Assembly (NCBI GenBank): GCA_036788295.1
Contig: DAIQNR010000006.1
Location: forward strand, 51,523-115,522
Origin: Myxococcota bacterium
GTDB taxonomy: Bacteria > Myxococcota > Kuafuiibacteriia > Kuafuiibacteriales > Kuafuiibacteriaceae
Length of the DNA: 64,000 bases
Reading direction: 5' to 3'
Shown: in pieces, positions 5,878 to 41,913 of the stretch
Layout: each line of letters opens with the position of its first letter
Numbering within the stretch: the first letter of the stretch is position 1
Translations under genes and position numbers: made by a program
The notes under the pieces: generated by a model
Database searches by the model: none
The model's input: the letters and a program-made list of their open reading frames with translations, nothing else
Told to the model about the DNA's origin: nothing

Positions 5878-6164
5878 GAGGAAGCGATTCACGGCGCTGC
5901 CCGGGATGAAAACCCGGTTTGGCCCCCTGGAAACCCGGACGAGGATCGACCCATCGGACGAACGGCGAAACACAGCGGTCACACTGGACTTCCCGGCCTG
6001 AAACTTGGAAGGTCCCGGCCCGTGCCTAGGTGCGGATCGGCGACAGTCCGAGAGGCTGCTCCGGGGACCCCAGAGCCGAGCGGCTGGGCAAGAACGTGCG
6101 AGCGCGAGGGGCGGTCCCGGGCGGTTTGGGCTGCGAAGAGCGCAAGGAGATACGAGGTCATCGA

Positions 6165-10121: not shown

Positions 10122-10144
10122 GAATGGGGAGGAGAGGACGAGAG

Positions 10145-19181: not shown

Positions 19182-21194
19182 TTATTTGCCGGCGACCTCC
19201 GCCGCGTTTTTCGTTGGGGCCTGGACTCGCGACGCCGCCGGGGACTCTCGGGAGGAAGCGAGCGAGTGAAACAGGGCCGCCGCGTCCGCGCGGCTGTCGA
19301 GGTAGGTGTAGCCCGCGAGGCCGCCTTCGTAGTGCCGTACCAGCGCCGCGCTCTGCTCGAACGTGATCTTCCCGTCCGCGAGCGCGCGCTCGATGGCCCG
19401 GCGCAGCCGCTCCATGAGGCTCCGCTGGTCGTAGCTGACGTAGCTGAGCACGTCGCGGACGGTGTCGCCCTCGACGACGTGCCGAACCGAGTAGCCGTTT
19501 TGCTCGTCGTGCTCGATGTGCACCGCGTTCACGTCGCCGAATAGGTTGTGAAGGTCGCCCAAGATCTCCTGGTAGGCCCCCACGAGGAACACGGCGAGGA
19601 AGTAGGGCTCGCCCGTCGTGTAGGGGTGAAGCTCGAGCGTCTCCTTCACGTCGTGCAGGCCGATGAACTGATCGATCTTCCCGTCGCTGTCGCAGGTGAG
19701 GTCGGCGAGCACCCCGCGGCGGGTGGGCTGCTCGTTCAGCCGGTGGATCGGCATGACCGGAAACAGAGCTTTCACCGCCCAGGAGTCGGGCACCGACTGA
19801 AACAAGCTGAAGTTGCAATAGTACGTGTCGGAGACCAGCTTCTCGAGCGGCTCGAGGTCCTCGGGAACATAATCGAGCTCCCGCACGATCTTCCAGATCC
19901 TCCGGCAGGTCTCCCCGTACAAGCGCTCCGCCATCGCTCGGTCGCGCAAAGAGAGGATGCCGTGGCGGTACAGCGACAGCGCGTCCTCCTTCAGCTGAAG
20001 CGCGTCGTGGTAAGCCTCCGAATAGTTCTTCTTCGAGACGGTGGTCGCGGTCTCCCGAAGATCCTCGAGGACCTGGTGATCCTCCTCGCCGGCCGGGGGC
20101 AGGGGCCGGGTGTCTTCGGAGGCGTTCGTCCCGAGCACGTTGAAGACCAGGATCGAATGGTGGGCGACCAGGGCCCGGCCCGACTCGGAGAGGATGATCG
20201 GGTGGGGGATGTCCACCTCGTCGAGCGTGGTCGCGGTCTGCCAGACGACGTCGGAGGCGTACTCGTCGAGGCTATAGTTCTTCGAGGCGTGAAAGTTCGT
20301 CTTCGAGCCGTCGTAGTCGACGGCGAGGCCCCCGCCGATGTCGAGGTACGTCAGCGGGGCTCCGAGCTGGTAGAGGTCCGCGAACATCCGAGTGACCTCG
20401 GACATCGCGTCCTTCACCGCTCGGATGGCCGTGATCTGCGAGCCGATGTGAAAGTGCAGGCAGACGAGGCGATCGAGCAGGCCGCGCTCTTCGAGCAGCT
20501 CGCACGCGAGCACCAGCTCTTCGGCCGACAGTCCGAACTTCGACCGCTCGCCCCCGGACTCGGCCCAGCGCCCGCTCCCCTTGGTGGACAGCTTCGCCCT
20601 GAGCCCGATGTTCGGGGCGAGCCCGATGTGCTCCGAGGCGTCGAGGATCGACGGCAGCTCCGCGAATCGGTCCACGATGATGAGCGACGTCACCCCGACC
20701 CGCTGCGCGAGCAGCGCGGTCTGGACGTAGGCTTCGTCCTTGTAGCCGTTGCACACGACGAGCCCGTCCTTGCGTCCGCCCATGAGAGCGAGCGCCACCA
20801 GCAGCTCGGGCTTCGAGCCGGCCTCGAGCCCGAGCCCGAGCGGCTCGCCGACGTCGAGCAGTTCCTCGACCACGTGGCGCTGCTGGTTGACCTTGATCGG
20901 CATCACCGGGCGATAGGAGCCCTTGTAGCCGTACTCGACGATCTTCCGGTCGAACGCGCCCCGCAGCTCCTCCACCCGGCGGCGCAGGATGTCCGAACAC
21001 CGGATGAGCAGCGGCAGGGGAAGCCCGCGCCGGACGAGGTCGTCCACCACCATCTTCAGGTCGATCGGGTTGGCGCCGGTCGCGGCCGACGTGATCTCCA
21101 CGTGGCCGTCGGCGTTGATCCCAAAATACCCGTTGCCCCAGCCCTTGATGCCGTAGAGTTCTTCGGAATCGCGCGATGTCCAGCCGCCAGCCAT
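19182..21194 (-). CDS. speA: Biosynthetic arginine decarboxylase
   Basis: 670 aa from ATG 21194: MAGGWTSRDSEELYGIKGWGNGYFGINADGHVEI, the canonical SpeA N-terminus, plus PLP fold. The track ORF extends 243 codons further upstream (to 21923) through an Arg/Pro-rich low-complexity stretch, judged spurious. Confidence 0.85.
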   Translation of the reverse strand: MAGGWTSRDSEELYGIKGWGNGYFGINADGHVEITSAATGANPIDLKMVVDDLVRRGLPLPLLIRCSDILRRRVEELRGAFDRKIVEYGYKGSYRPVMPIKVNQQRHVVEELLDVGEPLGLGLEAGSKPELLVALALMGGRKDGLVVCNGYKDEAYVQTALLAQRVGVTSLIIVDRFAELPSILDASEHIGLAPNIGLRAKLSTKGSGRWAESGGERSKFGLSAEELVLACELLEERGLLDRLVCLHFHIGSQITAIRAVKDAMSEVTRMFADLYQLGAPLTYLDIGGGLAVDYDGSKTNFHASKNYSLDEYASDVVWQTATTLDEVDIPHPIILSESGRALVAHHSILVFNVLGTNASEDTRPLPPAGEEDHQVLEDLRETATTVSKKNYSEAYHDALQLKEDALSLYRHGILSLRDRAMAERLYGETCRRIWKIVRELDYVPEDLEPLEKLVSDTYYCNFSLFQSVPDSWAVKALFPVMPIHRLNEQPTRRGVLADLTCDSDGKIDQFIGLHDVKETLELHPYTTGEPYFLAVFLVGAYQEILGDLHNLFGDVNAVHIEHDEQNGYSVRHVVEGDTVRDVLSYVSYDQRSLMERLRRAIERALADGKITFEQSAALVRHYEGGLAGYTYLDSRADAAALFHSLASSRESPAASRVQAPTKNAAEVAGK

Positions 21195-21404
21195 GGGCGC
21201 CCGGTTACACGGCGGACCGGGCTTTTTCCACCAAAGACCGAAGGCCGCCCCTTCGATGACCCGGTCCCAGCTTTCCCCGCGGTTGATGGTGCCCGCTCGC
21301 TCGGGCACGCTGCCGGCCGTGAGGGCTCTCACCGTGGCGCTCGGCCCCCGGTTGGCGGCTTGCCCGAGAATCGGCCGGTCTAGGCTCGGTCGGAGGGACG
21401 AGGC

Positions 21405-21863
21405 GTGAACCACGTCGAGGTCCTGAGGCGGCGCCGACCCGGCGCCCGGGGGGGCAACGCGAGGCAGGTCAAGCAGGCGGCGCAGGCCACGCTCGCCCAC
21501 GAGGGGGTCACCGGCCGAGAGGTGTCGGTGCTGCTGACCGACGATCAGGAAATTTGGGCTCTGAACCGGGATTTTCGGGGGGTGGACAAACCCACCGACG
21601 TGCTCGCGTTTGCGTTCGACGAGGCCGAGGAGGGGATGATGGGCCCGAGCCTCGGGGATGTCGCGATCAGCGTGGAGCGGGCGGCGCTGCAGGCAACGAG
21701 CCGGCGTGTCACGCTCGACGCCGAGCTGGAGCTGCTCGTGGTGCACGGCTGCCTTCACCTTCTCGGGTACGACCATGAGGAGCCGGACGAGGCCCGCGCC
21801 ATGCGCAACCGGACCCGGGCGGTGCGCCGGACCCTGCGCGCCTCGCGGGCCGGAGCCCGATGA
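21405..21863 (+). CDS. ybeY: Endoribonuclease YbeY (rRNA maturation factor)
   Basis: 152 aa. HGCLHLLGYDHEEPDEA zinc-binding motif. GGAGGG RBS 7 nt upstream of the start codon at 21405. Confidence 0.85.
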   Translation: MNHVEVLRRRRPGARGGNARQVKQAAQATLAHEGVTGREVSVLLTDDQEIWALNRDFRGVDKPTDVLAFAFDEAEEGMMGPSLGDVAISVERAALQATSRRVTLDAELELLVVHGCLHLLGYDHEEPDEARAMRNRTRAVRRTLRASRAGAR

Positions 21864-21921
21864 CCGGGGCTCGTCTCGGGCCCTTGTCGCCCGGGCGGTG
21901 GCGTCGTACCACCGGCAGCCC

Positions 21922-22506
21922 ATGCGAAGAGTTCGTCGGGTCTGCGTGTTCTGTGGCTCGCAGCCGGGAAAGGACCCGAAGTACGCCGCGGTGGCGGACG
22001 CGGTCGGCCGCGCGATCGCCGAGCGCGGTTTTGGCCTCGTCTACGGGGGCGCGCGGGTTGGCACCATGGGCATGGTCGCCGACGCCGCGCTCGCGGCTGG
22101 CGCGCCGGTGTACGGGGTCATCCCCGAGCGCCTGTCCCGGCGGGAGCTCGCCCATGAAGGGCTCGACGAGCTGTTCGTCGTGGACAGCATGCACGCCCGA
22201 AAGACGATGATGGCCCACCTCTCGGACGCGTTCTGCGTGCTCCCCGGCGGCTTCGGGACGCTCGAGGAGGCGTTCGAGATCCTCACCTGGAGCCAGCTCG
22301 GCTACCACCGAAAGCCGCTTGGGCTGGTGAACCCGGATCGCTTCTTCGACCACCTGGTGGCCTACCTCGACGGGGCGGTGCAGGCTGGCTTTCTTCTCCC
22401 CGAGCACCGCGCGCTGTTGTTCTCGGATCCGGACCCCCAAGCGGTGCTCGACCACCTCGCCACCGCCGAGCCGCCGGAGCTGCCCCGCTGGATCGACAAG
22501 CCGTGA
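21922..22506 (+). CDS. LOG-family cytokinin riboside 5'-monophosphate phosphoribohydrolase (TIGR00730 Rossmann-fold protein)
   Basis: 194 aa from ATG 21922: VCVFCGSQPGKDPKYAAVADAVGRAIAERGFGLVYGGARVGTMG...GGFGTLEE... LOG signature. Confidence 0.8.
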   Translation: MRRVRRVCVFCGSQPGKDPKYAAVADAVGRAIAERGFGLVYGGARVGTMGMVADAALAAGAPVYGVIPERLSRRELAHEGLDELFVVDSMHARKTMMAHLSDAFCVLPGGFGTLEEAFEILTWSQLGYHRKPLGLVNPDRFFDHLVAYLDGAVQAGFLLPEHRALLFSDPDPQAVLDHLATAEPPELPRWIDKP

Positions 22507-23414
22507 CGCCCGACCGCCGCTTCACCCACCGGGTCCGCGGGCTCGAGCTGGTTTGGCACGGGTTTGGGGACCGCGACGGGCCGGCGGTGGTGTGCGTGCA
22601 CGGGTTCCTCGACCACGGCCGGTCCTTCTCCGCGGTCGCAGCTGCGCTCGGGGCCGATCTGTGTCTGTGGTCGCCGGACCTCAGAGGCCACGGCGAGTCG
22701 GGCTGGGTCGGAGCTGGTGGGTACTACCACTTCTACGACTATTTCGACGACGTCCGCCGCGGGCTCGACGCGGCTGGGCTCGACCGGTTCTTGCTCGTCG
22801 GGCATTCGATGGGGGGGAGCATCGCGACCGGGATCGCCGCGCTCATGGGTTCGAGGGTGCGGGGGCTCGTGCTGCTCGAGGGCATGGGGCCTCCCTACAC
22901 CCGTCTCGAGGACACGAAGAACCGGCTGGCCCGGTGGATGGTTTCGGCGGCGCAGCCGGCGGTGGACGGCGACGTCGCCCACCGGCGGGCCCACCGGCCC
23001 AAGATGGCCACCCTCGACGAGGCGGCGGCGAAGCTCTGCCGCTTCAACCCTCGGCTCGACGAGGCCCGGGCGTTTTCGCTCGCCGCGAGCTTCGCCGAGC
23101 CGGTGGAGGGCGGGTACGCCTGGCGGTACGACCCCCTGCACCGGACCCCGGCGCCGAAGCCCTTCCTCGAAGGGGAAGCCCGAGCCCTCTGGGCGACGAT
23201 CGAGGCCCCCACGCTGTCGCTGTACGGGGAGCACGGCATGAAGCCGCCCCTGGTCGCCGAGCGCCACCTCCACCTCCGCGGGGCCAAGAGCGGGGTCGTC
23301 CCCAAAGCCGGCCACAACCTCCACCACGAGCGGCCGGAGCTGGTGGCGGCCGCGATCCGGTCGATGCACGAGACCGGCCGGGCCGTGCTCCCGGATGGGG
23401 TTCACCCCGGCTGA
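22503..23414 (+). CDS. Alpha/beta-fold hydrolase
   Basis: 303 aa. GTG start overlaps the LOG stop (GTGA). HGFLDHG...LVGHSMGG nucleophile elbow (GHSMGG). Confidence 0.7.
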   Translation: MTPDRRFTHRVRGLELVWHGFGDRDGPAVVCVHGFLDHGRSFSAVAAALGADLCLWSPDLRGHGESGWVGAGGYYHFYDYFDDVRRGLDAAGLDRFLLVGHSMGGSIATGIAALMGSRVRGLVLLEGMGPPYTRLEDTKNRLARWMVSAAQPAVDGDVAHRRAHRPKMATLDEAAAKLCRFNPRLDEARAFSLAASFAEPVEGGYAWRYDPLHRTPAPKPFLEGEARALWATIEAPTLSLYGEHGMKPPLVAERHLHLRGAKSGVVPKAGHNLHHERPELVAAAIRSMHETGRAVLPDGVHPG

Positions 23415-24268
23415 GCCGGATGGCGGTCGAGAAAGGCGCGAACCGAGCCGGCGAGGTCCGCTTTGCCGTCGAGCACGGCTCCGAGGTGCTGGTCGAACCA
23501 CGGCCGAACCACCGGCTGGGCGAGCCGCCACTCTCGGTGGATGAGCCAGGCCACCGGCCCGGCCTCGTCGAGGAAGCCGGAGCGACGAAAGTCGGCGTCG
23601 GTGGCCTCCACGTCGTAGGGGACCCGGCCCCGGTCCACCCTCCAGCCGTCGCTCGTGGCCTCGAGCGCGACCCACCCAGCGAGGTGGACGCCATCGGAGG
23701 GCGAGCCGACCGAGCCTGCGTTTACGACCCGGGCGTCGCCGACGCCAAAATCGAGCGCTTCGTGCAGGTGGCCGACCACGAACACGCCGTCCGCGGGGGC
23801 CAGGTCGCGCCGGTTCTTCGTGGCTGGCGACAGGCCCACGTCGTCGCCGCCGAGCGAGGCGTGCACGACGCGCAGCGGGGGCAATCCGGGCACATCGACC
23901 GATACGCCGTCCGGCTGGCCGAACAGGGCTCGTACCCGGGCCCCGAGCTGCCGATGGGTGAAGGCGGAGGTCGCGTGGACGTCCGCGAGCCGGCCGGTGG
24001 GAGCCTCCCCGGTGGCGTGGCGGCGCACGTAGCGCTCGTGGTTTCCGCTCGTGAAGACGAAGCGGGCATCGGCGAGCTGGTGGAGCCGGTCGAAGACCGC
24101 GTCGGAGCGGGGGCCTCGGTTCACCACGTCCCCATGCACCACCACCAGGTCGGCGTGCTGGGGTTGGGCGTCGGCCAGGACCGCTTCGAGCGCGGCTCGG
24201 TTGCCGTGCACGTCGGACAGGCACAGCACCCGGGCCCCGCGGGTCAGCGCTCGATGGACCCACTGCAC
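23402..24268 (-). CDS. Calcineurin-like metallophosphoesterase (PPP-type Ser/Thr phosphatase-like); start uncertain
   Basis: LCLSDVHGN, VHGDVVNRG, GNHE, GHLH motifs. The only in-frame start downstream of the kinase stop is GTG 24268 (VQWVHRALTRGARVLCLSDVHG). The 388-aa track ORF would overlap the kinase gene by 217 nt. Confidence 0.6.
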   Translation of the reverse strand: MQWVHRALTRGARVLCLSDVHGNRAALEAVLADAQPQHADLVVVHGDVVNRGPRSDAVFDRLHQLADARFVFTSGNHERYVRRHATGEAPTGRLADVHATSAFTHRQLGARVRALFGQPDGVSVDVPGLPPLRVVHASLGGDDVGLSPATKNRRDLAPADGVFVVGHLHEALDFGVGDARVVNAGSVGSPSDGVHLAGWVALEATSDGWRVDRGRVPYDVEATDADFRRSGFLDEAGPVAWLIHREWRLAQPVVRPWFDQHLGAVLDGKADLAGSVRAFLDRHPAQPG

Positions 24269-24350
24269 CTCCCAGAGCTTGGGGGAGCGGACCCGCCCGG
24301 TAAAGCGGCCGTGGACCGAGGCTCCGACGCCGGTCCATTCGGCCTCGAGG

Positions 24351-25364
24351 CTAGCCCCGGCCGCCGGGACGCACGAGCCGGCGCCACCACGGCGTGGCCC
24401 CCGGTGAAGGGCGAGGGACGGCGACGGTCGGCTCGGGCCGGGCCCTGCGTAGGCGGCTGGTCTCCTCCGCGATCCGGCCCACCGCCGCTTCCCATGCGTA
24501 CCCCGAGGTCTTCGGCCCGACCGGGCCGAGCGCCCGGCGCAACACCCGCAGCGCAGAGCGCAACTCATCGGCGGTCGCGAACCGGGCGCCGATGTCCGGG
24601 TCGAGCGCCTTCGCGAGGGTTCGGTCCGCTTCTCCGGGGAGCGTCGGGTCGATCTGGCTTGGAGCCGGGATGCCGCGCAGCATCTCCACCGCGACCGCCA
24701 TCGCGCTTCGCGCGGTGAACGGGAGGCGGCCGGTGAGGCCCCGGTACACTACGACCGCGACCGACCACAGGTCGGCTCTGCCGTCCACCGGGGAGCCGGC
24801 GAGCGCCTCGGGGCTCATGAAGCTCGGGGTCCCGATGAGCGCGCCGGCCTCGGTCAGCGGCGTGTGCTCCATCCCGACCGGCCGAACGATGCCGAAGTCG
24901 AGCAGCTTCACCCGCCCCGGGGTCAGGAAGATGTTTGCGGGCTTCACGTCCCGGTGCACGAACCCCCGGGCGTGGGCGGCGCCGAGTGCGTCGAGCACCT
25001 CGATCGCGACCTCGAGCACCCGCTCCCTCGGCATGCTCCCGCCGCTGAACGCTTGGGCCAAGTCTTCGCCTTCGAGCCGCTCGAACACCACGAACGGTTG
25101 GCCATCGGCGTCGAGCCCGGCGTCGAGCACGTCCACGATGCCCGGGTGCCCGAGCGCCCCGACGGCCTGGGCCTCACGAAGAAAGCGGCGCCGGATCGCG
25201 TCCACCGAGGCGAACTGGGGGTGCAGGCGCTTGAGCGCAACCCGTCTTCCGGTCACTCGGTGCACCGCCCCGTACACCGCCCCCATGCCGCCGCTCCCGA
25301 GCAGCTCTACGAGCAGGTACCGGCCGCCGACCTCCTGCCCGAGCTTCGACATCAACTCCGTCAT
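24351..25364 (-). CDS. Ser/Thr protein kinase (Hanks-type), 337 aa
   Basis: Start MTELMSKLGQEVGGRYLLVELLGSGGMGAVYGA...VALKRL...HRDVKPANIFL...DFGI...GTPSFMSPE. ATG 25364 overlaps the TGA of the upstream HD gene (ATGA). The track ORF N-terminal 224 aa is an Arg-rich spurious extension overlapping the HD gene. Confidence 0.85.
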   Translation of the reverse strand: MTELMSKLGQEVGGRYLLVELLGSGGMGAVYGAVHRVTGRRVALKRLHPQFASVDAIRRRFLREAQAVGALGHPGIVDVLDAGLDADGQPFVVFERLEGEDLAQAFSGGSMPRERVLEVAIEVLDALGAAHARGFVHRDVKPANIFLTPGRVKLLDFGIVRPVGMEHTPLTEAGALIGTPSFMSPEALAGSPVDGRADLWSVAVVVYRGLTGRLPFTARSAMAVAVEMLRGIPAPSQIDPTLPGEADRTLAKALDPDIGARFATADELRSALRVLRRALGPVGPKTSGYAWEAAVGRIAEETSRLRRARPEPTVAVPRPSPGATPWWRRLVRPGGRG

Positions 25365-26677
25365 CCCAGCTCCTCGAGCGCCTCGGTTGCGATGGTGGCC
25401 ATGACCGGAGGCAGCGGCAAGCGCAAGCTGGGCAGGCCAGGGCGATCGGAGAGCTCGGATAGGTCGAGCTCGAGGCCTTCTCGGAGCCTTCCTCGGCCCT
25501 GATCTTCCACCACCACGACCGGGTGAAAGGCGAGCTCCGGGTGGGGCTCGATCACACGAACCCGCTCGCCGGTGCTCAGCTCGGCCTCGGTGTCGGCGGG
25601 GACCGCATCCACCAGCCGAGCCAGCCGCTCGAGCAGGTAGGGGTTCAATCCGACCGCCCGCCGCTGAAGCCACGCGATCGAGGCGCCGGCGCTGGATCGA
25701 TGGTGCAGAGCCAAGGTCCGAAGTCCATCGAACTGATCGGCGAGCTTGGTCAGCTCGACCGCGAGCAGGCCCGGAGCGCCGTCCTGCAGCGGCGTGTGGT
25801 GACCGAAGGCGACGACGGCGCCGAGCCGAGCGCCGGCTTCGAGCAGGAGGCGACCCCCTTCGAGCGTGTGGCGGTCGAGCCAGGCCCGCTCCGACGGGGT
25901 GAGCGGGGCCTGCTTGTCGAGAATCGCCGGCGGGATCCGGGTCTTTCCGAGGTCGTGGGTCAACCCGGCGGTCACGAGGCTCTGCACATCGTCTTCGTCG
26001 AGCCCGAGCGTCCGCGCCTGTGCGCCGACCAAGCAAGCGACATTGACCGAGTGGACGAGCTGCCGGTCGTCCCGATCCTTGAGCGCAGCGAGCGCACAGA
26101 GCGGCAACTCAGGTTTCAGCAAGTTGTCCATCAGCGCCTGCGCGAGCCGGGAGAACGCAATCTCGCTGGGGGGCTTGCCGGCGCCGCTCGCCGCGAAGAG
26201 GCTCCCGAGCTCCCGGGTCGCCTGCCGGTAGACCGAACGAAAGTCCTGTGCGGTGGCCCGCTCGTCGAGCTGCAGGTGCCGAAGCTGGATGCGCTCGACA
26301 CCTCTGCGCCCGAGCCACTGCGAAGATGACTCTCCGGCCAGCTCCGCCTCCGTCGCCGACAGGAGGTCGAGCAGCACCTCGACCTCGGAACGCTCGACCC
26401 CGGGAGCGAACGCGACCACTTCGAGCCCGAGCGCGAGCAGCCGCTCGGCGAGCCGGCGGGCGGCCACCGGAGGCTTCGGCAGCAGCACCCCGTCCACCGC
26501 GAGATGGTCGGCCAGCACCCCGATCGTCAACTGCGGTCTGCCGTCGAGGCATCGCCGGATGGCGGCGTGCACGGAGGCCGCGGCCCGGCGGGCGGCCTCG
26601 GCGCCCGGGGCATAGATGCGACGGCTGCGCCACGCCCCAGCGAGCAGGAGGCCGGCGTCGCGGTGGGTCTCATCCAT
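25361..26677 (-). CDS. HD-domain protein related to HD-GYP phosphodiesterases, with degenerate GYP motif
   Basis: 438 aa. HSVNVACL...LTHDLGK (HD), LTPSERAWLDRHTLEGGRLL, FGHHTPLQDGAPG (HHExxDGxGYP degraded to HHTPLQDGAPG). Long N-terminal helical region. Start overlaps the upstream gene end by 8 nt. Confidence 0.7.
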   Translation of the reverse strand: MDETHRDAGLLLAGAWRSRRIYAPGAEAARRAAASVHAAIRRCLDGRPQLTIGVLADHLAVDGVLLPKPPVAARRLAERLLALGLEVVAFAPGVERSEVEVLLDLLSATEAELAGESSSQWLGRRGVERIQLRHLQLDERATAQDFRSVYRQATRELGSLFAASGAGKPPSEIAFSRLAQALMDNLLKPELPLCALAALKDRDDRQLVHSVNVACLVGAQARTLGLDEDDVQSLVTAGLTHDLGKTRIPPAILDKQAPLTPSERAWLDRHTLEGGRLLLEAGARLGAVVAFGHHTPLQDGAPGLLAVELTKLADQFDGLRTLALHHRSSAGASIAWLQRRAVGLNPYLLERLARLVDAVPADTEAELSTGERVRVIEPHPELAFHPVVVVEDQGRGRLREGLELDLSELSDRPGLPSLRLPLPPVMATIATEALEELG

Positions 26678-28718
26678 GTCCGATGGCCTCGAGCGCTCGG
26701 CGGGCGGCGCGGTGGCGGCGGGCCCGCTCGATCAGGACCTTGGCGCTCGGGGAAGGATGATGGACGAGCGCGCGAGCGGCGGCGAGGCGGACCGCCTCGA
26801 CCGGCCCCGACGAGAGGAGGGGGGCCGGCCGGACCAGGAGGTGGCCGAGGTAGGCGAGGGCGAGGCCTCCGTCGGAGTGACCGAGCGCCTCGACCGCGAG
26901 CAGGGCGACCCGATCGCTGAGCCCGTCCTCTTCCGGCCCCGCTCGGAGCAGCCGGCGAATGGGCCCAGGGCCCTTCAGGCCGGCGATGAGACCGACGAGC
27001 TTGAGGCCTGACCCACGGGGCGCCCGGACCAGCGCGTCGATCACGAGTCCGATGTCTTCCCTACGCACGGTGGCGAGTGCGCGCCGCGCGACCTCGAGGC
27101 CCTCCGGGCTGCCGGTAGCGAGCGTGGCTTCGAGCGCGGCCGCGAGCCGGTGGGGACCGAGCGGGCCAAACCCTCCGGCGATGAGCTCGGCGAACGACTC
27201 CGGGGGCAGGCGACGCATGGTGGATCGCAAGTGCAATTGCTGCTGGGGCCCGAATCGGTGGAGTGCGCCGAGCAGGAGCGCGGCTCGCACCGAGTTCGGG
27301 GTCCGAGGGTCCCGGACGAGGCGGGGGAGGCGAGCGAGCCCGCTGGGGCGGTCGACCGCGACCCGTAGCAGCGGCCGCAGCTCCCTGGAATCTCCAGCCC
27401 GGCGGGCGATCTCCAGCTGCACCGGGAGCCCCGCATCCCGGATGCCTTCGTCCTCGAGCGCCTGGGCGAGTCCGAGCGCGTCCTCGGCGAGCTCGGCGCT
27501 GACGGGGCCGTCGGCGGCGAGCAGCGCGCCGTACACCGCGAGCAGCGGCTCTCGGACCAACCTCTTGTCCAGGGTGTGAAGGACGTCTTGCCCAAGAACC
27601 GGGCGGCTCTCCCACCGCCTCCGCAGTTCAGCTTGCCGAATGAGCCCAGGGTAGGAGCCCGGGTCGGTCAGCTCGGCGATCCCGTGCCGCTCGTCGCCGA
27701 GGGTTCGCGCCTCGAGCGACTGCCACAACAGCCCGTCGATGGGGCGCCCCCGGGCGCTCGACGCGCGGTCCACTTGCGCGAGCAGACGCCGCCGGGCGCC
27801 GAGCACCGGCCTCAGCCGGCCGAGGAGACGGCCGACCGCCTTCGCGACCGCCTCGCTGCTGTCTTCGAGCAGCGCGCTGGCGATGGCGTCCACCACCGTG
27901 CCGTCGTCGATGGACGGCCCCAGCGCGGACAGGAGGTCCGAGCCTTCCACTTCGGAGAGGCGCCGCAAGAGCTCGAAGCGGGCTTCGGGGGCGAGGCGGG
28001 CGAGCGCATCGGCGAGCCGGGCCGCGCCCTCTCCGAGGTCGGCCCTGGCCCCAGCATGCAGGCGAAACGCCTCCGCGCCCGCGTCCGCGATCTCGTCCCT
28101 TCCGGCGCGCCCGTCCTCGGCCCGCTCGATGAGGTCCTCGAGAAACTTCCCGAGGCCGTCCGGGTCCCGGACCGACTCGAAGCGGACCGGGATCGGTTCA
28201 CCGCCCCGGCCGAAGCGGATCACGGTGCGGAGCCCCCGCTCGAGCACCGGATCCTCCCTGGCCGCCGGAGGCAAGCGGGCCACGGCGCCGTCGAAGAGCC
28301 CGGCGAAGTCCACGGAGATGAGCTCGAGGCCGGGGCTCTCCAGCTGGTCGAGCCGGGCCGATTCATTCGGCTCGGGAGGCGCGGAGAGGGCGTCGATCAC
28401 GGCGAGGAAGCGGTCTGGGTCGACCCGTCGGTCGAGGCGGATCCCGAGCAGCCCGCGGCGGAGCATGGTCCGGGCGAGCGCGGCGGCCGCGCCCTCCGCT
28501 CGAGCCGGTCCGTCTCGGTCGACGAACAGGCTGCTGCCTCCGGTGGCGAGCGAGAGCCGCCCGGGGTCGGCCCGAAACCGCTCCTCGAGCGCGGTCCGGA
28601 CCTCCTGCCGGGCCTCGACGCACACCGGATGGCTGGGCGCGTAGTAGGCGAGCGCCTGCGCCGCTCGGCCGAGCGCGGACAGAAGCCTCTCGCTCACGAA
28701 AGACCCTCCACCACCCAC
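26670..28718 (-). CDS. Large uncharacterised protein with C-terminal HEAT/PBS-lyase-like repeats (682 aa)
   Basis: Protein-like, diverse composition. C-terminal LLAVEALGHSDGGLALAYLGHLL...AVRLAAARALVHH repeats. Start may be downstream of 28718, which overlaps the preceding gene by 25 nt. Confidence 0.55.
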   Translation of the reverse strand: MGGGGSFVSERLLSALGRAAQALAYYAPSHPVCVEARQEVRTALEERFRADPGRLSLATGGSSLFVDRDGPARAEGAAAALARTMLRRGLLGIRLDRRVDPDRFLAVIDALSAPPEPNESARLDQLESPGLELISVDFAGLFDGAVARLPPAAREDPVLERGLRTVIRFGRGGEPIPVRFESVRDPDGLGKFLEDLIERAEDGRAGRDEIADAGAEAFRLHAGARADLGEGAARLADALARLAPEARFELLRRLSEVEGSDLLSALGPSIDDGTVVDAIASALLEDSSEAVAKAVGRLLGRLRPVLGARRRLLAQVDRASSARGRPIDGLLWQSLEARTLGDERHGIAELTDPGSYPGLIRQAELRRRWESRPVLGQDVLHTLDKRLVREPLLAVYGALLAADGPVSAELAEDALGLAQALEDEGIRDAGLPVQLEIARRAGDSRELRPLLRVAVDRPSGLARLPRLVRDPRTPNSVRAALLLGALHRFGPQQQLHLRSTMRRLPPESFAELIAGGFGPLGPHRLAAALEATLATGSPEGLEVARRALATVRREDIGLVIDALVRAPRGSGLKLVGLIAGLKGPGPIRRLLRAGPEEDGLSDRVALLAVEALGHSDGGLALAYLGHLLVRPAPLLSSGPVEAVRLAAARALVHHPSPSAKVLIERARRHRAARRALEAIGHG

Positions 28719-30577
28719 GTCGCCGGCCCGGCCGGCGCCAGGCGCACCGGCTTCGCGTCGAGCCCGGCGAGCATCGGGGCCTGCGCATCACCGAGCGCAT
28801 CGACCCCCGGGCATCGGCGGAGCGCGGACAAGACGTCCTCCCCGAGCACCAGACCGGGCGCTTCGGTCAGCAGGACGAGGCGGGGCGGGACGGACAAGAG
28901 CCCGGTTCGCCGCCGCTCCCGCCCGAGCTGCGCCCACCGCTGAGCGTGCTCGGCCCTCGCCGATGCCCGCAGCCATGGGAGCGAGAGGCCACGGTCCGCG
29001 GGGCCCGAGGCGAGGCCGATCCCCACCGCGAGCAGCAGTCCTGGAGGGCTCGACGCCTCGACGAGGGCGTCCACGCCTCGCTCCGGATCTTCGGCTGCCG
29101 CTTCGAGCAGGTCGGGGAGGTCTTCGGACCCGATCGGCGGGGGGAGCGCCCGATGAAGAGCCGCTTCTGCCTCGCGCCTCAGCCGCTGCCAGCCGAATGC
29201 GAGCACCGCGAGCGCATCCACCGGACCGGTAGCGGCGACTCGGTCCGGGCCAGCCGGGACCGTCTCGACTCCGGGCTGCTGCTTCGCCAGGTCGCGCGCT
29301 GGTGCGAGCAATACCGCCTGCATGGTCTCTAGCACGACCGAAGCCGAGGGTCCCATGAGGTCCGCTCCGTGCATGGTGAGGAGCAAGACACCTTGCTCGG
29401 TAGGCCGGGCCCGGCTGAGCAGCGGGCGACCGATCTCGAGTTCGAGCGCGGGACGGCGCCGGTCCGCTACAGCTCGCAGGCGGGCGGCCAGCCGCTCGTC
29501 GAGCCGGAGGACCAGGGCCCCGAGCGCGGCGAGCACGGCTCGACGCTCCCGCTGCTCCTCGGACGGAGGGGGGGCCTCGAGCTGCTGCAGGAGGGCCTGG
29601 GCGAGCGGATGGGGGAGACCGCGGAGCGCCTCGAGGAGCCGGGCTCGCCTGGGGGTCTCGGCGACGGCCGCGAGCAGGGCCCGAGGATCCCTCAAGACAT
29701 CGGCCACCGGCGCCGACGCTCGCGGACGGGGGCTCGACCGCTCCGCCTCCCTTCCCGCTCCGCTCCCTGGATGAAGCGAATCCTGCACCGCCGACACCGC
29801 GATCGCTGCGTCTCGCACCCGCTCGGCGGTGACCGCGCGGTCGAGGTGGTCCCGCTCCCGGTCTTCGACGAGCAGGCGCTCGGCCAGGGCGTCGGCGGCG
29901 TCCTTCAGTCGCACCGGCTCATCGCTCGCCCCGTCGATCACCCGGCGGGCGAGGGCGAGCGCCGCCGGGGTGGTGCGATAGTTGTTCACCAGGCGCCCCG
30001 CGATCCGGTCCGGGTCGGCGCCGAGCGACACCGGTGACGGGACGAGCGCGAGGGCCCGGGCCAGGCGGCCGCTGCCTTCGACCGGCTCCCGGTCGAGCCA
30101 CGCGGCGGTGTCGGCCCGGAGCATCAGGTCGAACAGGACCCGGCGCTCGATGCCGGCGGCCCGGAGCCGGTCGGCGAGCCCGGTCACAAAACCGCTCCAT
30201 CCGAGCAGGGCCGCTTCTGTCCCCCGGTGCCCGGACTTCTCCGCTTCGAGGACGCGGAGCAGCACCTCGGGGAGCACCTGGCCGAGCTTCGACCCCGGGC
30301 CGCCGAGAAAAGCGAGCGCGTCCGCCGGGTGCACTCCGGCGTCGGCCTGGGCGAGCCGCATCGCGCGGCGCATCGCGCCCGGTTCGGGCGTCGATCCCAA
30401 GTCCCGGCCGAAGTCGGCGGCGAGCCGGTCGAGCTCGGCTCCGAGCCGAGGGCCAAGTTCGACCGAGCCGGGGAAGCGAACCGAGTCGGGGAGGAGCAGG
30501 TCGAGCCCGCCGCGGTGAAGCGTCGACTCGAAACCTCGCGCCCGGGCCCCGACCCACGCCTCGCAGGTGGGTAGCAC
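28694..30577 (-). CDS. Large uncharacterised helical protein (627 aa), first gene of the operon
   Basis: Long ORF with no recognisable catalytic motif. Contiguous and co-oriented with the next four genes. Divergent intergenic region upstream of the 30577 start (30578-30713). Confidence 0.5.
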   Translation of the reverse strand: MLPTCEAWVGARARGFESTLHRGGLDLLLPDSVRFPGSVELGPRLGAELDRLAADFGRDLGSTPEPGAMRRAMRLAQADAGVHPADALAFLGGPGSKLGQVLPEVLLRVLEAEKSGHRGTEAALLGWSGFVTGLADRLRAAGIERRVLFDLMLRADTAAWLDREPVEGSGRLARALALVPSPVSLGADPDRIAGRLVNNYRTTPAALALARRVIDGASDEPVRLKDAADALAERLLVEDRERDHLDRAVTAERVRDAAIAVSAVQDSLHPGSGAGREAERSSPRPRASAPVADVLRDPRALLAAVAETPRRARLLEALRGLPHPLAQALLQQLEAPPPSEEQRERRAVLAALGALVLRLDERLAARLRAVADRRRPALELEIGRPLLSRARPTEQGVLLLTMHGADLMGPSASVVLETMQAVLLAPARDLAKQQPGVETVPAGPDRVAATGPVDALAVLAFGWQRLRREAEAALHRALPPPIGSEDLPDLLEAAAEDPERGVDALVEASSPPGLLLAVGIGLASGPADRGLSLPWLRASARAEHAQRWAQLGRERRRTGLLSVPPRLVLLTEAPGLVLGEDVLSALRRCPGVDALGDAQAPMLAGLDAKPVRLAPAGPATWVVEGLS

Positions 30578-30713
30578 CCCGCTACCCTACGTCCGGACGC
30601 CAAGGTCCGGAAGTCGGGTCCGCGCCGCCCGGTGCGCAAGCGCCGAGACCCCCGGTCCGGGGGGACAGGTTGGGGGAAAGAGCGAGGATGCCGGCGCGGA
30701 AGCCCCTCCTTTT

Positions 30714-31343
30714 TTGATCTTGAATTTCAGTCGCAATAGCGAAACCGTCCCGGCGCTCGTGCTGGTCGCCGGTGCCATCTTCGTTCTCCTCGGGCAGGCG
30801 GGCCTCTACGCCCTCTGGCCGTCGCCGGACCTGCGGCCGCTTCGGCGATTTCGGCCCGGCGCCGCGGCCGGCAGCGTGGGGCTCGTCGTCGCTGGGGGCG
30901 CGACCGCCGCGCTGGCGGGTGGAGTCACCGGGCTCCTCCTCGTCCTTGCTGCAGCGATGGTCGGCGGGCCGGTCCTCGTGCTCGCCGCGCCGCTCCTCCT
31001 GCGCCTACCAACCGCCCCCGAAGGCGCAGCCCGCCGGGGACGGCTCCGCCACCGGTGGACGACTGGGGAAGGCTGGGTGAAGGCGGTGGCCTCCCTGGTG
31101 GGTGGGTTTGCCGTCTTCGTTCTCACCTGCCTCTGGTTTCCGCTCGTTCTCCCCGAGCTCGGGCTGTCGATGGAGGCGGCGCTCGCTCTGGCTACGCTGC
31201 TCGCGCTCCCGGGTTGGGTGGGTTTGACCTTTGCCTGCCTCTGCGCACGCCGCCCGCTCGGAGCCGTGGCATGGGTTTTGGTGTCCACGCTCGTGCTCGG
31301 GGTTTCTGCCCTCCTCCCCGCGCTCTCGAGGGGCCCGACGTGA
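30714..31343 (+). CDS. Polytopic membrane protein (about 5 TM helices); start uncertain (TTG 30714 or GTG 30762)
   Basis: Hydrophobic segments VPALVLVAGAIFVLLGQAGLYALW, GLLLVLAAAMVGGPVLVLAAPLLL, FAVFVLTCLWFPLVL, LATLLALPGWVGLTFACL, VAWVLVSTLVLGVSALL. Stop overlaps the GTG start of the PepSY gene (GTGA). Confidence 0.5.
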   Translation: MILNFSRNSETVPALVLVAGAIFVLLGQAGLYALWPSPDLRPLRRFRPGAAAGSVGLVVAGGATAALAGGVTGLLLVLAAAMVGGPVLVLAAPLLLRLPTAPEGAARRGRLRHRWTTGEGWVKAVASLVGGFAVFVLTCLWFPLVLPELGLSMEAALALATLLALPGWVGLTFACLCARRPLGAVAWVLVSTLVLGVSALLPALSRGPT

Positions 31344-36285: not shown

Positions 36286-37296
36286 TCACCAGCCCGACCG
36301 CCAGACGTGCTGGGTGAGGGCTGCCATGTATTGAGCGCGCTCGAACGCGGAGGGGTCGGGGCTGTTGACTTGGCTGAGCGAGCCCTTCATCTGCTCGACC
36401 GATTCGTACTCCCGCTCGGTGAGCCAGGCCGAGAGGTCGCTCGAGACCTTGGCTGCGTGGCCGGGGCCGTGGCGGAGCAAGGCCGAAGTCATCATGGTGA
36501 CATCGGCGCCGGCGAGCAGGAGCTTCACCACGTCGCTGGCTTGGTGCACCCCGCTCGTGGCCGCGAGGTCCACCGAGACCCGCCCCTTGAGCAGCGCGAT
36601 CCACCGCAGCGGCAGCCGCATCTCCTCCGCCGAGGACAGGGTGAGCCGCGGCTCGACCGCGAGGTGGTCGAGGTCGATGTCGGGCTGGAGGAACCGGTTG
36701 AACAGGACGAGACCGCTGGCCCCGTTCTCCGCGAGCTGAAGCGCGAAGTGCCCCGGGCTGCTGTAGAACGGCGAGAGCTTCACGGCGAGCGGCAGCTGGG
36801 TCTGGGCCCGGACCTGCCGCACGAGCGCGACGACGTCCCGCTCGACCTCTATGCCCGGCCGAGTGACATCGGCGGGAACGGTGTAGACGTTGAGCTCGAG
36901 CGCGTCGGCACCCGCTTCTTCCACCTTGCGGGCGTGAAGCACCCACCCGCCTTGGGTATGTCCGTTGAGGCTCGCGATGACCGGGATGGACAGGGCCGCT
37001 TTCGCCGCCGCGATCAGCTCGAGCTGCTCGTCGCTGCGGCGCTTCATCTGGTGCATGTCGGGGAAGTAGCCGCCGGCCGCCTCCCCGAAGGTCTCGGCGC
37101 CGATGCGCTGAGCCCGAAACAGCTCCGCCTCCTCATGCTCGATCTGTTCTTCGAAGATCGAAGGCAGCACCACCGCCGATAGGCCGGCGTCTTCGAGCCG
37201 ACGCAGGGTGTCCACGTTTCCGGTGAGCGGGCCGCAGCTCGCCACCAAGGGGCTTTTCAGGGGCAAGCCCAGCCACCGGGTCGATAGATCCATCAT
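36286..37296 (-). CDS. Dihydroorotate dehydrogenase-like (DHOD family, class 1-type) protein coupled to PFOR
   Basis: 337 aa from ATG 37296 (ATGA overlap with the PFOR stop). LKSPLVASCGPLTGNVDTL...ELNVYTVP...LAVKLSPF... TIM-barrel DHOD/DHPD family features. Confidence 0.7.
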   Translation of the reverse strand: MMDLSTRWLGLPLKSPLVASCGPLTGNVDTLRRLEDAGLSAVVLPSIFEEQIEHEEAELFRAQRIGAETFGEAAGGYFPDMHQMKRRSDEQLELIAAAKAALSIPVIASLNGHTQGGWVLHARKVEEAGADALELNVYTVPADVTRPGIEVERDVVALVRQVRAQTQLPLAVKLSPFYSSPGHFALQLAENGASGLVLFNRFLQPDIDLDHLAVEPRLTLSSAEEMRLPLRWIALLKGRVSVDLAATSGVHQASDVVKLLLAGADVTMMTSALLRHGPGHAAKVSSDLSAWLTEREYESVEQMKGSLSQVNSPDPSAFERAQYMAALTQHVWRSGW

Positions 37297-40200
37297 CCTT
37301 GTTCCTCGGTCACGGTGTGGCGCTCGAGCCCGGCGAGCTGCTCGTAGTAGCTCCACCGCTCGTCGATGTCCTTTTGGGCGAGCACGGCGAGCCTCGAGGC
37401 GCGCTCGGGGTCGGCGCGCTGAAGCATCGCGTACCGAGCCTCCTTTTCGGCGTAGGTCTTGAACGGCCGGCTCGGCTTTTTGCTGTCGAGCTGAAAGGGG
37501 TGGGCGTCGGTGTCCGAGTGCCGGGGGTCGAACCGGTACAGCGGCCAGTGCCCGACCGCCTCGGCCTCCTTCATGTGCGACATCGACGTGCTCATGTCGA
37601 TGCCGTGCGCGATGCAGGTGGCGTAGGCGATGACGAGCGAGACGCCGGGGTAGGATGCGGCCTCGCGCATGGCCTGAAGGGTCTGCTTCATGTTTGCGCC
37701 GAGCGCGATCTGGGCCACGTATACGTTGCCGTACCCCATCGCGATCATGCCGAGGTCCTTCTTGCCGATCGGCTTGCCGGCGGCGGCGAACTTGGCGACC
37801 GCGCCCCGGGGCGTGGCCTTCGAGGCCTGGCCGCCGGTGTTCGAATAGACCTCGGTGTCGAGCACCAGGATGTTCAGATCCTCCCCGGAGGTGAGCACGT
37901 GGTCGAGGCCGCCGAAGCCGATGTCATAGGCCCAGCCGTCGCCGCCCACGATCCAGACGCTCTTTGGGACCAGGTGATCGGCGAGCCCGCTCAGCCGCCT
38001 CGCCTCCGCCGATGGGTTCGTGCTGAGTTGGCGCTTCAGCTCGGCGACCGCCTCGCGGCGGCCGGCGATCGCCGGCTCGTCGAGGATCGGGGCCGGGGCA
38101 CGGAGCGCGGCCACGAGCGCGCCCGGGATGGCCAAAGACGGATCGGTGAGCAGGGCCTCCGCGTGCAGGCTCTGCTGCTTCAGCGCGAGCCGCATCCCGA
38201 GCCCGAATTCGGCGTTGTCCTCGAACAGGGAGTTCGACCACGCCGGGCCCCGGCCGGCGCTGTCCTGCGACCACGGGGTGGTGGGGAGGTTGCCGCCGAA
38301 GATCGACGAGCACCCGGTGGCGTTCGCGACGACGGCCCGATCCCCGAGGAGCTGGGTCATGAGCTTCAGGTACGGGGTCTCTCCGCAGCCGGCGCACGCC
38401 CCAGAGTACTCGAACAGGGGCTCGGCGAGCTGGCTGCCCTTGACCGTCTCGAGCCGGACTTTTGTCCGGTCGGCGGCGGGCTGGGCGAGGAAAGCCTCGA
38501 ACCGGGGACGCTCCCGCTCGATGTGCTCGTCCTTGGGAGACATGTCGATCGCCTTGTGCTTGGCCACCGACTTGCTCTTTGCCGGGCAGACGTCCACGCA
38601 AACCCCGCAGCCGGTGCAGTCGTCAGGGGCGACCTGAACCATGAACTTCAGGTCGGGGCCGATGAGTTCTTTGCCCCGGTAGGGCACGGCGCCGAGCGCG
38701 GTGACCTCGTCCGAGTTCGGGAAAGCTTTGGTCCGGATGGCGGCGTGGGGGCAAACGAGCGCGCAGAACCCACACTGGATGCAGATGTCCGAATCCCAGA
38801 TCGGGATCTCGAGCGCGATGCTCCGCTTCTCGTACTGGGCCGTCCCGGTAGGAAAGGCCCCGTCCACGGGCAGGGCGGACACCGGCAGCTTGTCACCGTC
38901 GCCGCGAATGATGGCGCCGGTGACCCGGGTCACGAAGTCCGGAGCGGACGGGGGCACCGCCGGGCGCAGGCGGATCTCGGAGGTGATCGAGAGCGGGACC
39001 TTCACCTCGTGGAGGTGGGCGAGCGCGGCGTCCACTGCGGTGACGTTGGCATCGAGCACCCTCTGGCCCGACTTCTTGTACGTCTTCTCGATCGACCTCT
39101 TGATGGCGGCGATCGCCTCGTCTCTCGGCAAAGCCCCAAAGAGGGCGAAGAAGCAGGTCTGCATCACCGTGTTGATCCGGCCGGCGAGCCCCGCCTCCTC
39201 GGCGACCGCGACCGCGTCGATGACGAACAGCCGCAGCTTCTTCTCGAGGATGGCCCGCTGCACTTCTTCGGGCAGCTTGTCCCAAACGATTTCGGCGCCG
39301 TGCGGGGAGTTCAACAGGAACGTGGCTCCTTCGGCGGCCAAAGACAGCACGTCCCGCTGCTCGAGAAAGTTGAACTGGTGGCAGGCCACGAACTGCGCCG
39401 ACTGCACGAGGTAGGTGGACTCGATGGGGCGGGGAGAGAAGCGCAGGTGGGATACCGTCACCGCGCCCGACTTCTTCGAGTCGTAGACGAAGTATCCCTG
39501 GGCGTGGAGGTCCGTCTCTTCGCCGATGATCTTCACCGAGTTCTTGTTCGCGCCCACCGTTCCGTCGGCCCCGAGTCCGTAGAAGACCGCGCGGACGACA
39601 TCCGAGGGCTCGATCTCGGGCGCCTTGTCGTAGTTGATGCTCAAGTGGGTGACGTCATCGACGATGCCCACCGTGAACCCATTCCGGGGCATGGTCTGGC
39701 GCAGCTCCGAGAACACGCCGGTCGCCATTCGCGGCGTGAACTCTTTCGAGGAGAGGCCGTAGCGGCCGCCCACGACCTCGGGCACCGTCTGCCGCAAACC
39801 CTGCCGACGGGCTTCGCTCAGCGCAGCCAGAACGTCGAGGTAGAGCGGCTCGCCGGGGGCGCCGGGCTCCTTCGTGCGGTCGAGCACCGCCACCTTGCGA
39901 ACCGATGGGGGCAGGGCGTCGAGCAGCCCCTTCATCGAGAACGGCCGAAACAGGCGCACGCCCACCACGCCGACCCGCTCGCCAACCTCCACCATGCGCC
40001 GGACCGCCTCGCGGGCGGCGCCGAGGCCCGAACCCATCATGACGATGACCTGATCCGGCTCGGGGTGTCCGTCGTAGTCGAACAGCCGCATGCTCCGGCC
40101 GGTCTGCTCCGACAGGCGCTTCATGGCCGACTCGATGATGCCCGGGGTTTGGAGGTAGTAGGGGTTGCACGCTTCCCTCGCCTGGAAGAACACGTCCGGG

Positions 40201-40862: not shown

Positions 40863-40992
40863 TGTCCGCCGACTGTGCAAACGGTGGTCCAATGCGATTT
40901 CACCGTTCTCGAGGCCCGAGGGCGCACCGAACGGTAACTCTTTGCGGGGTGACAACCGAGCGAGGGGACGAAGATGCGTAGATACCCTTATA

Positions 40993-41913
40993 TCAACGGG
41001 TGAAGGCTCGGTAGGGTCCGGTCCGCCAGGTCATGTCGGCCAGAGCCCGCTGGCCCGCGGCGGAGGGGTGAAAGCAGTCGAAGGGGGAGACCTCGTTCGC
41101 GGCGAAGCGGTACTGCTCGACCGCGTCGGAATACTGGTAGTAGTGGTTTGGGTCGCTCTGCTGGTATTCGGCCGCGAGCCGCTCGAGGATTCGGTTGAAG
41201 GCGAGGTTTCGGCTCCGGGTGAACTGCCGGTCGGCCTCGGAGTTGGTCGGGCTCAGCATCGTTCCGCAGGGATAGATGTTGAGCAGGGTGGTCGCCCAGA
41301 CGGCCCGGCAGTCGAGGAATCCAAACGCGCTGAGGTCGGCGCCGAGCTCGTAGAGCCGGTAGATGTCCACGAGACCGAGCAGGTAGACGGTGGCCCCGGC
41401 CGGCAGGCCCCGTCGAAGCTCGTCGAGCGCCGCCCGCACGTTCGCCTCGAACTCGGCGTCCGATGGGATCTGGGCGAAGTCGTTCTTGCAGACGTCGTTG
41501 TGCCCCATCAGGACCGGGACATAGCTCGCCTGCCGCGCCACCGCTCCCCGCGCCTGAGCGAGCAGGTTCGGGGAGCTCGCCCCGCTCACCCCCTGCATGT
41601 CGTTGACCCGGCCCCGGGAGCCGAAGTTGCGGGTGATGCGCTGGTTGTGGCTGTTGACGTCGGTGCGGCCGAGCAGCCACTCCCAAAAGCCCCGGTAGCC
41701 GTTCGTGTAGCTGGCCCAGGGGTTCGGGTTCGCGATCCGCAGCACGTTGAATTCTTCGGCGTTGACCGCGGCGGTGATGCTGTCGCCGATCGAGGACAGC
41801 CGCGTGGGCGCGAGCTGCGGGGGTTTGCTTTGCGCCATCGCGTCGGGGACGAAGAGCGATGCGGTGAGGGCGGCGCTCAGCGACGCCGCCCGAAGTCGGA
41901 CAATGTAGGCCAT
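40993..41913 (-). CDS. Secreted SGNH/GDSL-family hydrolase
   Basis: 306 aa from ATG 41913 (GGGAGG RBS). Signal peptide MAYIVRLRAASLSAALTASLFVPDAMAQ. GDSIT motif near the N-terminus. DxxH-like C-terminal CFHPSAAG. Confidence 0.7.
   Translation of the reverse strand: MAYIVRLRAASLSAALTASLFVPDAMAQSKPPQLAPTRLSSIGDSITAAVNAEEFNVLRIANPNPWASYTNGYRGFWEWLLGRTDVNSHNQRITRNFGSRGRVNDMQGVSGASSPNLLAQARGAVARQASYVPVLMGHNDVCKNDFAQIPSDAEFEANVRAALDELRRGLPAGATVYLLGLVDIYRLYELGADLSAFGFLDCRAVWATTLLNIYPCGTMLSPTNSEADRQFTRSRNLAFNRILERLAAEYQQSDPNHYYQYSDAVEQYRFAANEVSPFDCFHPSAAGQRALADMTWRTGPYRAFTR

Follow-up and report, generated by a model that had tools for sequence, protein, structure and literature searches.

HD-GYP phosphodiesterases such as PmGH (Protein Data Bank (PDB) entry 4mcw), PA4781 (4r8z) and V-cGAP3 (5z7c) share a metal site of the pattern H...HD..K...H...HH...D. 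How these enzymes are regulated, and what the members lacking the GYP motif do, is poorly understood. Bd1817 (3tm8), from the predatory 'delta' lineage of Bdellovibrio, has the HD-GYP fold and lacks the canonical GYP tyrosine. Few direct connections are known between signalling by Hanks kinases and the turnover of cyclic dinucleotides. Another degenerate member, DvhD, no longer has the metal ligands of the HD and HH motifs; it is documented as a receptor for cyclic diguanylate (c-di-GMP) and acts as a nucleotide sensor inside a multi-protein regulatory system (PMC13090378). In the present study, a 64,000-nucleotide stretch of a Myxococcota bacterium (contig DAIQNR010000006.1, positions 51,523 to 115,522 of the forward strand; hereafter, the window) was analysed. 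It carries four overlapping genes, A to D, for a large protein without known domain, a HEAT-repeat protein, an HD-GYP-type protein without the GYP motif, and a Hanks-type Ser/Thr kinase. The A-B-C order is conserved in about a dozen independent loci, and a Hanks kinase gene is adjacent in every locus that is long enough to tell.

The window is about 72% in GC content, and the five co-oriented minus-strand open reading frames (ORFs), A to E, that a first-pass annotation had placed between 23402 and 30577 are indeed present there. Their GC contents at the third and second codon positions (GC3 and GC2) are 0.85-0.90 and 0.49-0.55, similar to those of neighbouring genes such as the arginine decarboxylase gene (19182-21923). 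Since antisense frames at such a high GC content are also long and rich in GC3 (for example, the plus-strand frame 27576-28943), composition alone cannot settle the strand. The strand was settled by homology; every protein-level match in other organisms falls in the minus-strand frames A to E. One of the matching genomes (L019) has a GC content of 55%, which makes spurious ORFs unlikely there. The same five genes were also obtained by an independent gene call on L004, a second contig of the same organism. The first-pass annotation had named missing conservation, missing synteny or an odd GC3 of the two large ORFs as signs that they are spurious, whereas A and B proved to be conserved and syntenic, with a normal GC3.

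The start codon of gene B was revised. The gene itself stands, while the start at 28718 (682 amino acid residues) is less suitable than the GTG codon at 28697 (675 residues), which has a GGAGG sequence 7 nucleotides upstream and gives a four-nucleotide GTGA overlap with the stop codon of gene A. At 627 and 675 residues, the products of A and B can hardly be called 'giant', as had been done. The B and C genes overlap by eight nucleotides, and the C and D genes overlap by four (ATGA). Judged from these junctions, A, B, C, and D are translationally coupled. Genes D and E are separated by an 82-nucleotide gap, in which a sequence scan found no terminator-like site or hairpin, and a GGGAGG sequence precedes E. 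The presumed promoter region of the cluster (30578-30760, minus strand) lies upstream of A and is shared with a divergently oriented ORF; a simple scan of this region found no sigma-70-like site.

Is this gene order found in other genomes? Related loci were gathered by a word-indexed search, by scanning collections of genomes and metagenomes for sequence patterns, and by an exhaustive search with hidden Markov models (HMMs), and their gene content was read by tblastn with the five window proteins. The word-indexed search with B returned just two relatives, P0003 (45% identity) and P0004 (33%), and in both contigs an A homologue lies upstream and a C homologue lies downstream of the B relative. 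In summary, the A-B-C unit was found in about a dozen independent loci of metagenomes and metagenome-assembled genomes (MAGs) having 55-75% GC (L001/2, L003, L005-L008, L013, L015, L016, and L019). Gene D follows contiguously in L003, L005, L007, L008, L013, and L019, and L013 has a second kinase gene in addition. In L001 and L006, D lies 1.7-1.8 kb downstream of C, while in L015 and L016 a kinase gene precedes A. Two partial contigs (L009 and L022) show A and B; the A-like gene of L022 was confirmed by hhalign (E-value 1.7e-17). The closest relative is L001, whose C and D proteins are 59% and 62% identical to those of the window. Elsewhere the identity to the window proteins is as low as about 25% in the case of B, and about 21-28% in that of A. 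With such low identities and such a spread in GC content, the gene order must have been kept by selection rather than by recent common descent.

The named source records of the related loci are MAGs labelled Deltaproteobacteria, 'MYXO', or Bdellovibrionota, and the module has so far been found exclusively in genomes that are drafts or belong to uncultured organisms. Full-length members of the strict B family are rare, with 35 representatives among 1.84 billion clusters at an E-value threshold of 1e-30. The recognisable parts are all of known kinds, namely an HD-GYP domain, a Hanks kinase, and a HEAT scaffold. The fixed four-gene association, the N-terminal domain shared by B and C, and the A family are absent from Pfam and NCBIfam. 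Searches of the searchable literature that combined HD-GYP with kinase, Myxococcus, or HEAT found no description of them, so that the cassette may still be called undescribed, as the first-pass annotation did.

In one sub-clade (L003, L006, L007, and L013), a conserved response regulator gene and a divergently oriented gene for a Lactamase_B_2 protein of the metallo-beta-lactamase (MBL) fold precede the module, with 51-67% identity between the loci. These upstream genes lie at 478-1952 in L003, 6105-7807 in L006, 5067-6506 in L007, and 3467-4911 in L013. An alkyl-sulfatase-like MBL gene is also found ahead of the module in L007 and L013. These genes were considered as parts of the module and set aside as ordinary synteny of the sub-clade, since they are absent from the clade of the window.

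Gene C (25361-26677, minus strand) encodes a protein of 438 residues composed of an N-terminal domain (residues 16-132; 26282-26632), an HD-GYP-type catalytic domain predicted from the conserved ligands (residues 199-330; 25688-26083), and a conserved C-terminal domain of about 90 residues (residues 345-438; 25364-25645). It matches the Pfam families HD (PF01966; 1.2e-9) and HD_5 (7.7e-8; 32.7 bits against a cut-off of 27.2). The best PDB matches of the C family profile are PmGH (9e-18), PA4781 (9.5e-12), V-cGAP3 (2.8e-11), and Bd1817 (8.6e-9). Seven divergent members of the C family all keep H209, H241-D242, K245, H270, H293-H294, D314, and D317, and these invariant positions align with the metal-site motifs of PmGH. 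Thus, C keeps the metal-site pattern of the characterised enzymes, to which it is most similar in sequence. In contrast, the HHExxDGxGYP signature is absent and is replaced by HHTPLQDGAPGLL in the window protein. The consensus of the C family at this site is HH.....G.PGLL, with x-x-P-G-L in place of GYP, and the GYP motif has been lost in all of the seven strict family members. As far as can be judged from the sequence, C is a member of the HD-GYP family with a degenerate GYP motif, in agreement with the first-pass annotation.

C also differs from the characterised phosphodiesterases in having an uncharacterised N-terminal domain instead of a REC, GAF, or PAS domain, an extra conserved C-terminal domain, and three fixed partner genes. 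Bd1817, on the other hand, is a stand-alone protein, and its alignment with C is confined to the HD region, leaving the N-terminal region unmatched. The partners of DvhD are of a Lap-like protease/adhesin system, and its lost HD and HH ligands are kept in C (PMC13090378). Because the metal ligands are invariant, unlike in DvhD, retained metal-dependent catalysis is predicted for C, although the substrate may be altered. The first-pass annotation had seen C as a second-messenger input. The domain is of a nucleotide-messenger type; with all of the HD-GYP metal ligands kept, however, an enzymatic output seems a better description of C than a pure input. The C-terminal domain has a conserved block, NPYLLERFARL...LSTGE.VRV..PHPELAFHPVVEV, and the relative with GYP that is encoded in L020 (see below) has this block too. 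The C homologue of L019 (10105-12228; 707 residues) has an additional C-terminal extension of about 270 residues, which gave no match in Pfam.

Gene B (26670-28697, minus strand) encodes an N-terminal alpha/beta domain followed by a long alpha-solenoid. An AlphaFold2 (AF2) model made from three sequences has a predicted local distance difference test (pLDDT) score of 80 and shows an alpha/beta unit at about residues 1-135, followed by about 30 helices. The unit (28293-28697) has the order alpha-alpha-beta-beta-alpha-beta-alpha-alpha-beta and the motif YYAPSHPV, while the C-terminal part (about residues 380-675; 26673-27560) is an alpha-solenoid with HEAT-like repeats. B is thus recognisable as a HEAT-type repeat protein by both sequence and fold, which bears out the earlier report of such repeats in one of the large proteins. 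No family of Pfam, NCBIfam, or PADLOC matches B. Its resemblance to HEAT scaffolds such as the PP2A A subunit and CpcE/F-type proteins is at the level of the fold only; B has a distinctive N-terminal domain and has no conserved phosphatase or lyase partner.

The N-terminal domains of B and C are related. By hhalign, residues 20-136 of B align with residues 16-132 of C (E-value 1.8e-4), and 15 N-termini of both families can be aligned over 140 columns with short gaps only. The common motif is [YF]Y-x-P-x-HP, which has degenerated to RIYAPGAEA in the window C protein. This domain of about 120-140 residues (hereafter, the N-domain) has no match in Pfam or the PDB. The B profile has 731 matches, including the 35 full-length members of the B family, and most of the weaker ones among the 150 listed share the N-domain only. 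In the proteins sampled, the N-domain is followed by HEAT_2 repeats, except in one protein, where an HD domain follows. In many bacteria, this uncharacterised domain marks both HD-GYP enzymes and the HEAT-repeat proteins encoded next to them. I infer that the N-domain joins B and C, or that it allows both proteins to bind a common partner or ligand.

A wider family of B-like and C-like genes was found outside the four-gene module. In L020, the gene for a B-like HEAT protein has a C-like gene abutting it directly downstream. The product of this C-like gene aligns with the C family over 392 columns (hhalign, 2.4e-32) and keeps a canonical HHLRYDLSGYP sequence. L021 has the same pairing. The N-domain motif of the C-like proteins is FYPPEHP in L020 and LYAPDHP in L021. 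Therefore, a B-like/C-like pair with a true GYP motif occurs without A or the kinase, and the B-C pair is older and broader than the four-gene module. As far as the gene contents indicate, a single lineage has added A and the dedicated kinase to the pair. In L012, the coupled partner of a B-like protein is a short HD protein. Genes of the Metallophos, HEAT, and HD kinds beside the B-like gene of this locus were considered as counterparts of E, A, and C and were found not to be meaningfully related. In L010 (3395-8292), a B-like gene (P0051) directly follows a gene for a 690-residue Hanks kinase and a PilZ-domain gene, with two Crp regulators of the cyclic nucleoside monophosphate (cNMP)-binding type encoded nearby. 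This arrangement is a further hint that the N-domain/HEAT family is connected with kinase signalling as well as with c-di-GMP signalling.

Gene D (24351-25364, minus strand) encodes a Hanks-type Ser/Thr kinase of 337 residues. The kinase is complete, as had been annotated; it matches Pkinase (PF00069; 1e-40, 140 bits against a cut-off of 31.7) and has the motifs GSGGMG, VALK, HRDVKPAN, DFG, the activation-loop LT, and SPE. Sequence analysis of D found no transmembrane or sensor domain. The identity between D and the kinases following C in other loci is 40-62%. Common to these kinases is a C-terminal tail helix (residues 289-303 of D, YAWEAAVGRIAEETS; 24456-24500, minus strand) with the pattern Y/P-x-W-E-x-A-L-x-x-I-E-x-E-I, which was found in eight of eight kinases in this position, including the first kinase of L013; W291 and A294 are invariant in seven sequences. 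The identities and the shared helix indicate that the kinases following C form a module-specific orthologous group, and the helix is plausibly a docking element. In L015 and L016, the kinase encoded upstream of A is a different one, larger and membrane-anchored. The genome of the window resembles those known for Pkn-type signalling in myxobacteria in that it combines a complete Hanks kinase with MglA and MglB. However, D is minimal, consisting of the kinase domain and a short tail, and is distinguished by its coupling to an HD-GYP-type protein and by its module-specific tail helix. Since the linkage of the kinase and HD protein genes recurs in all related loci long enough to show it, the coupling of the two proposed earlier holds at the level of the genes, and the kinase and the nucleotide-messenger-type domain are likely to be functionally linked.

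Gene A (28694-30577, minus strand; GC3 of 0.85) encodes the 627-residue protein that had been described as lacking any recognisable catalytic motif. It is 41% identical to the product of the upstream gene of L001 (1e-57) and 35% identical over 626 residues to that of the L019 gene (9e-76). The family alignments show a conserved motif N-x-Y-R-T...A..LARRV around residues 198-213 and invariant positions at R171, L172, R201-T202, A206, A210, E252, D256, R346-A347, and P385-L386. No match was found in Pfam, NCBIfam, PADLOC, or the PDB, even though each family member was scanned in Pfam and the family profiles were compared with the PDB. The word-indexed search with A alone or with a seven-sequence alignment returned the query only, probably because it was swamped by Ala/Arg/Leu-rich words; the A homologues were therefore taken from the loci found through B. 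A is a genuine, conserved protein for which no relatives of known function could be detected. It has no significant similarity to B, the N-domain, the kinase extension of L010, or the C extension of L019. Residues 196-235 or so (N-x-YRT-P-x-A-x-x-LARRV...P-x-E) recur as the top hhalign alignment with the alpha3-beta2 part of the N-domain at a non-significant level (E-values 0.03-0.12, probability below 2%), and this may reflect a degenerate copy of the N-domain or chance. Among the versions sampled, A is seen only in those that contain a kinase, which suggests a functional tie of A to the kinase.

What could the four proteins do together? It is proposed, with roughly even odds (a probability of about 0.5), that A to D form a conserved cytoplasmic signalling module whose scaffolded nucleotide phosphodiesterase of the HD-GYP type is under the control of Ser/Thr phosphorylation. 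The core would be the metal-dependent phosphodiesterase C, paired through the common N-domain with its alpha-solenoid/HEAT partner B. In a Myxococcota/Bdellovibrionota-like lineage, the ancestral B-C pair would have gained the large helical protein A and the dedicated kinase D. B, and probably A as well, would scaffold C and D in a cytoplasmic complex, with the kinase probably docked on the A/B scaffold by its tail helix. Held in the complex, the kinase would phosphorylate A, B, or C, and the HD-GYP domain would thereby be switched in its activity or to other partners. The outcome would be a coupling of Ser/Thr phosphorylation to the turnover of a nucleotide second messenger, possibly of the c-di-GMP, pGpG, or 3'3'-cGAMP type. 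The physical complex, the docking, the phosphorylation target, the substrate, and the direction of information flow are what I infer from the genes. A more elaborate version is offered only tentatively: a new kind of bacterial second-messenger 'signalosome', in which the N-domain heterodimerises the phosphodiesterase with the HEAT scaffold, while the docked kinase and A, as a protein of a novel fold, gate nucleotide turnover. If this were true, Ser/Thr signalling of the eukaryote-like kind and signalling by cyclic dinucleotides would be hard-wired directly to each other. In any case, the module offers a fixed four-gene set in which a link between a Ser/Thr kinase and an HD-GYP protein is open to biochemical testing, and A represents a conserved family without recognisable relatives.

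Several points weigh against the proposed phosphorylation-controlled phosphodiesterase. Conserved adjacency is no proof of a physical complex. The homology of the N-domains of B and C is statistically moderate (hhalign probability 49%), and a structure of A was not obtained, the single-sequence AF2 model being unusable (pLDDT 38). The docking-helix idea cannot fit all members of the module, since the kinase of L015 and L016 is a different, membrane-anchored one. Moreover, HD-GYP proteins that have lost GYP, such as Bd1817, tend to be atypical or inactive, and C might bind a nucleotide rather than hydrolyse it. The last point leads to the main rival explanation, in which information flows in the direction assumed by the first-pass annotation: C would be a non-catalytic nucleotide sensor that binds c-di-GMP or a related messenger with its GYP-less domain, and the signal would pass through B and A to control the kinase, whose phosphorylation targets would lie outside the module. 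The absence of GYP from every strict member of the C family fits such a receptor, and so does the precedent of DvhD (PMC13090378). In addition, a kinase without its own sensor domain must receive its input from some partner. However, DvhD has lost the very ligands that C keeps invariant across a deep divergence, which indicates that metal chemistry has been retained, and a pure receptor is therefore regarded as rather doubtful.

The remaining explanations are less likely than both the phosphorylation-controlled phosphodiesterase and the receptor. One of them, implied by the first-pass annotation, is that the operon comprises five genes and that E, as the cognate protein phosphatase, completes a kinase/phosphatase pair. 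Gene E (23402-24268, minus strand) encodes an ApaH/PrpE/SapH-like calcineurin-type phosphoesterase of 288 residues, which matches Metallophos (PF00149; 53 bits) and Metallophos_2 (PF12850; 55.8 bits), both at about 1e-14, and has the PPP/ApaH-type motifs SDVHG, GDVVNRG, GNHE, and GHLHE. E is co-oriented with D and has a good ribosome-binding site, with nothing like a terminator in the short gap between them; thus, E may be co-transcribed here, as an opposing phosphatase or a nucleotide hydrolase. Yet tblastn found no E homologue beside the module in any other locus, including L001, apart from L004 of the same organism, and E is therefore a local, lineage-specific neighbour. So, of the gene order expected across relatives, A-B-C with a kinase is conserved and E is not, and the conserved cassette is A-B-C-D rather than the five-gene unit. 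The nearest solved relatives of E (3rqz, 3qfm of SapH, and 2qjc, a diadenosine tetraphosphate (Ap4A) hydrolase) are of the Ap4A-hydrolase/SapH type and not dedicated protein phosphatases, and its match to the PrpA/PrpB models is weak (1e-3, far below the cut-off). The label of a PPP-like phosphoesterase is fair at the superfamily level, with a nucleotide hydrolase being equally possible, and the five-gene operon with a cognate phosphatase is unlikely. A conflict or defence system, with the HD domain as a nuclease or nucleotide-depleting effector under the control of the kinase and the large accessory proteins, is still less probable. The kinase does match the PADLOC kinase models PD-T4-6 and mad6, but such matches are generic to any Hanks kinase; likewise, the HD domain matches Cas3 HD models weakly (2e-5 to 7e-3), while C is far closer to HD-GYP structures (9e-18), and neither A nor B matches a PADLOC model. 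The rarity of the family (about 35 full-length representatives) and the variation of the flanks between distant loci would suit a defence system. However, the flanking genes are of the housekeeping kind (YbeY, dihydroorotate (DHO) dehydrogenase, and a TonB receptor), the response-regulator/MBL neighbours kept in one sub-clade suggest vertical descent, and the ancestral B-like/C-like pair lies near ATP synthase genes. Finally, a chance adjacency of genes without a common function is strongly disfavoured by synteny: the reading frames overlap, about a dozen loci whose proteins are 25-45% identical keep the order, and the kinase gene is still a neighbour in those loci where it has changed sides.

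The wider surroundings of the module in the window include a pyruvate:ferredoxin oxidoreductase gene (37293-41030, minus strand) and the biosynthetic arginine decarboxylase gene mentioned above (minus strand), both of which are ordinary housekeeping genes. The mglA gene (1079-1660, plus strand) is preceded by an MglB-like Roadblock/LC7 ORF, the pair lying within 376-1666, and its product is 64% identical to what I take to be the sequence of Myxococcus xanthus MglA; this points to a host of the Myxococcota type. The module had been noted to lie about 20 kb from mglBA; the distance is about right (21.7 kb or so for mglA), but proximity gives no evidence of a functional link. Two tandem large ORFs on the plus strand (6030-10121 and 9908-14689; about 1360 and 1590 codons) have a very high GC3 and a weak match to Met-zincin (DUF4953) each. 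The product of a glutaminase gene (47223-48968, minus strand) has an EF-hand_14 domain at its N-terminus and ankyrin repeats at its C-terminus, arranged as in the kidney-type glutaminase of animals, which is unusual in bacteria.

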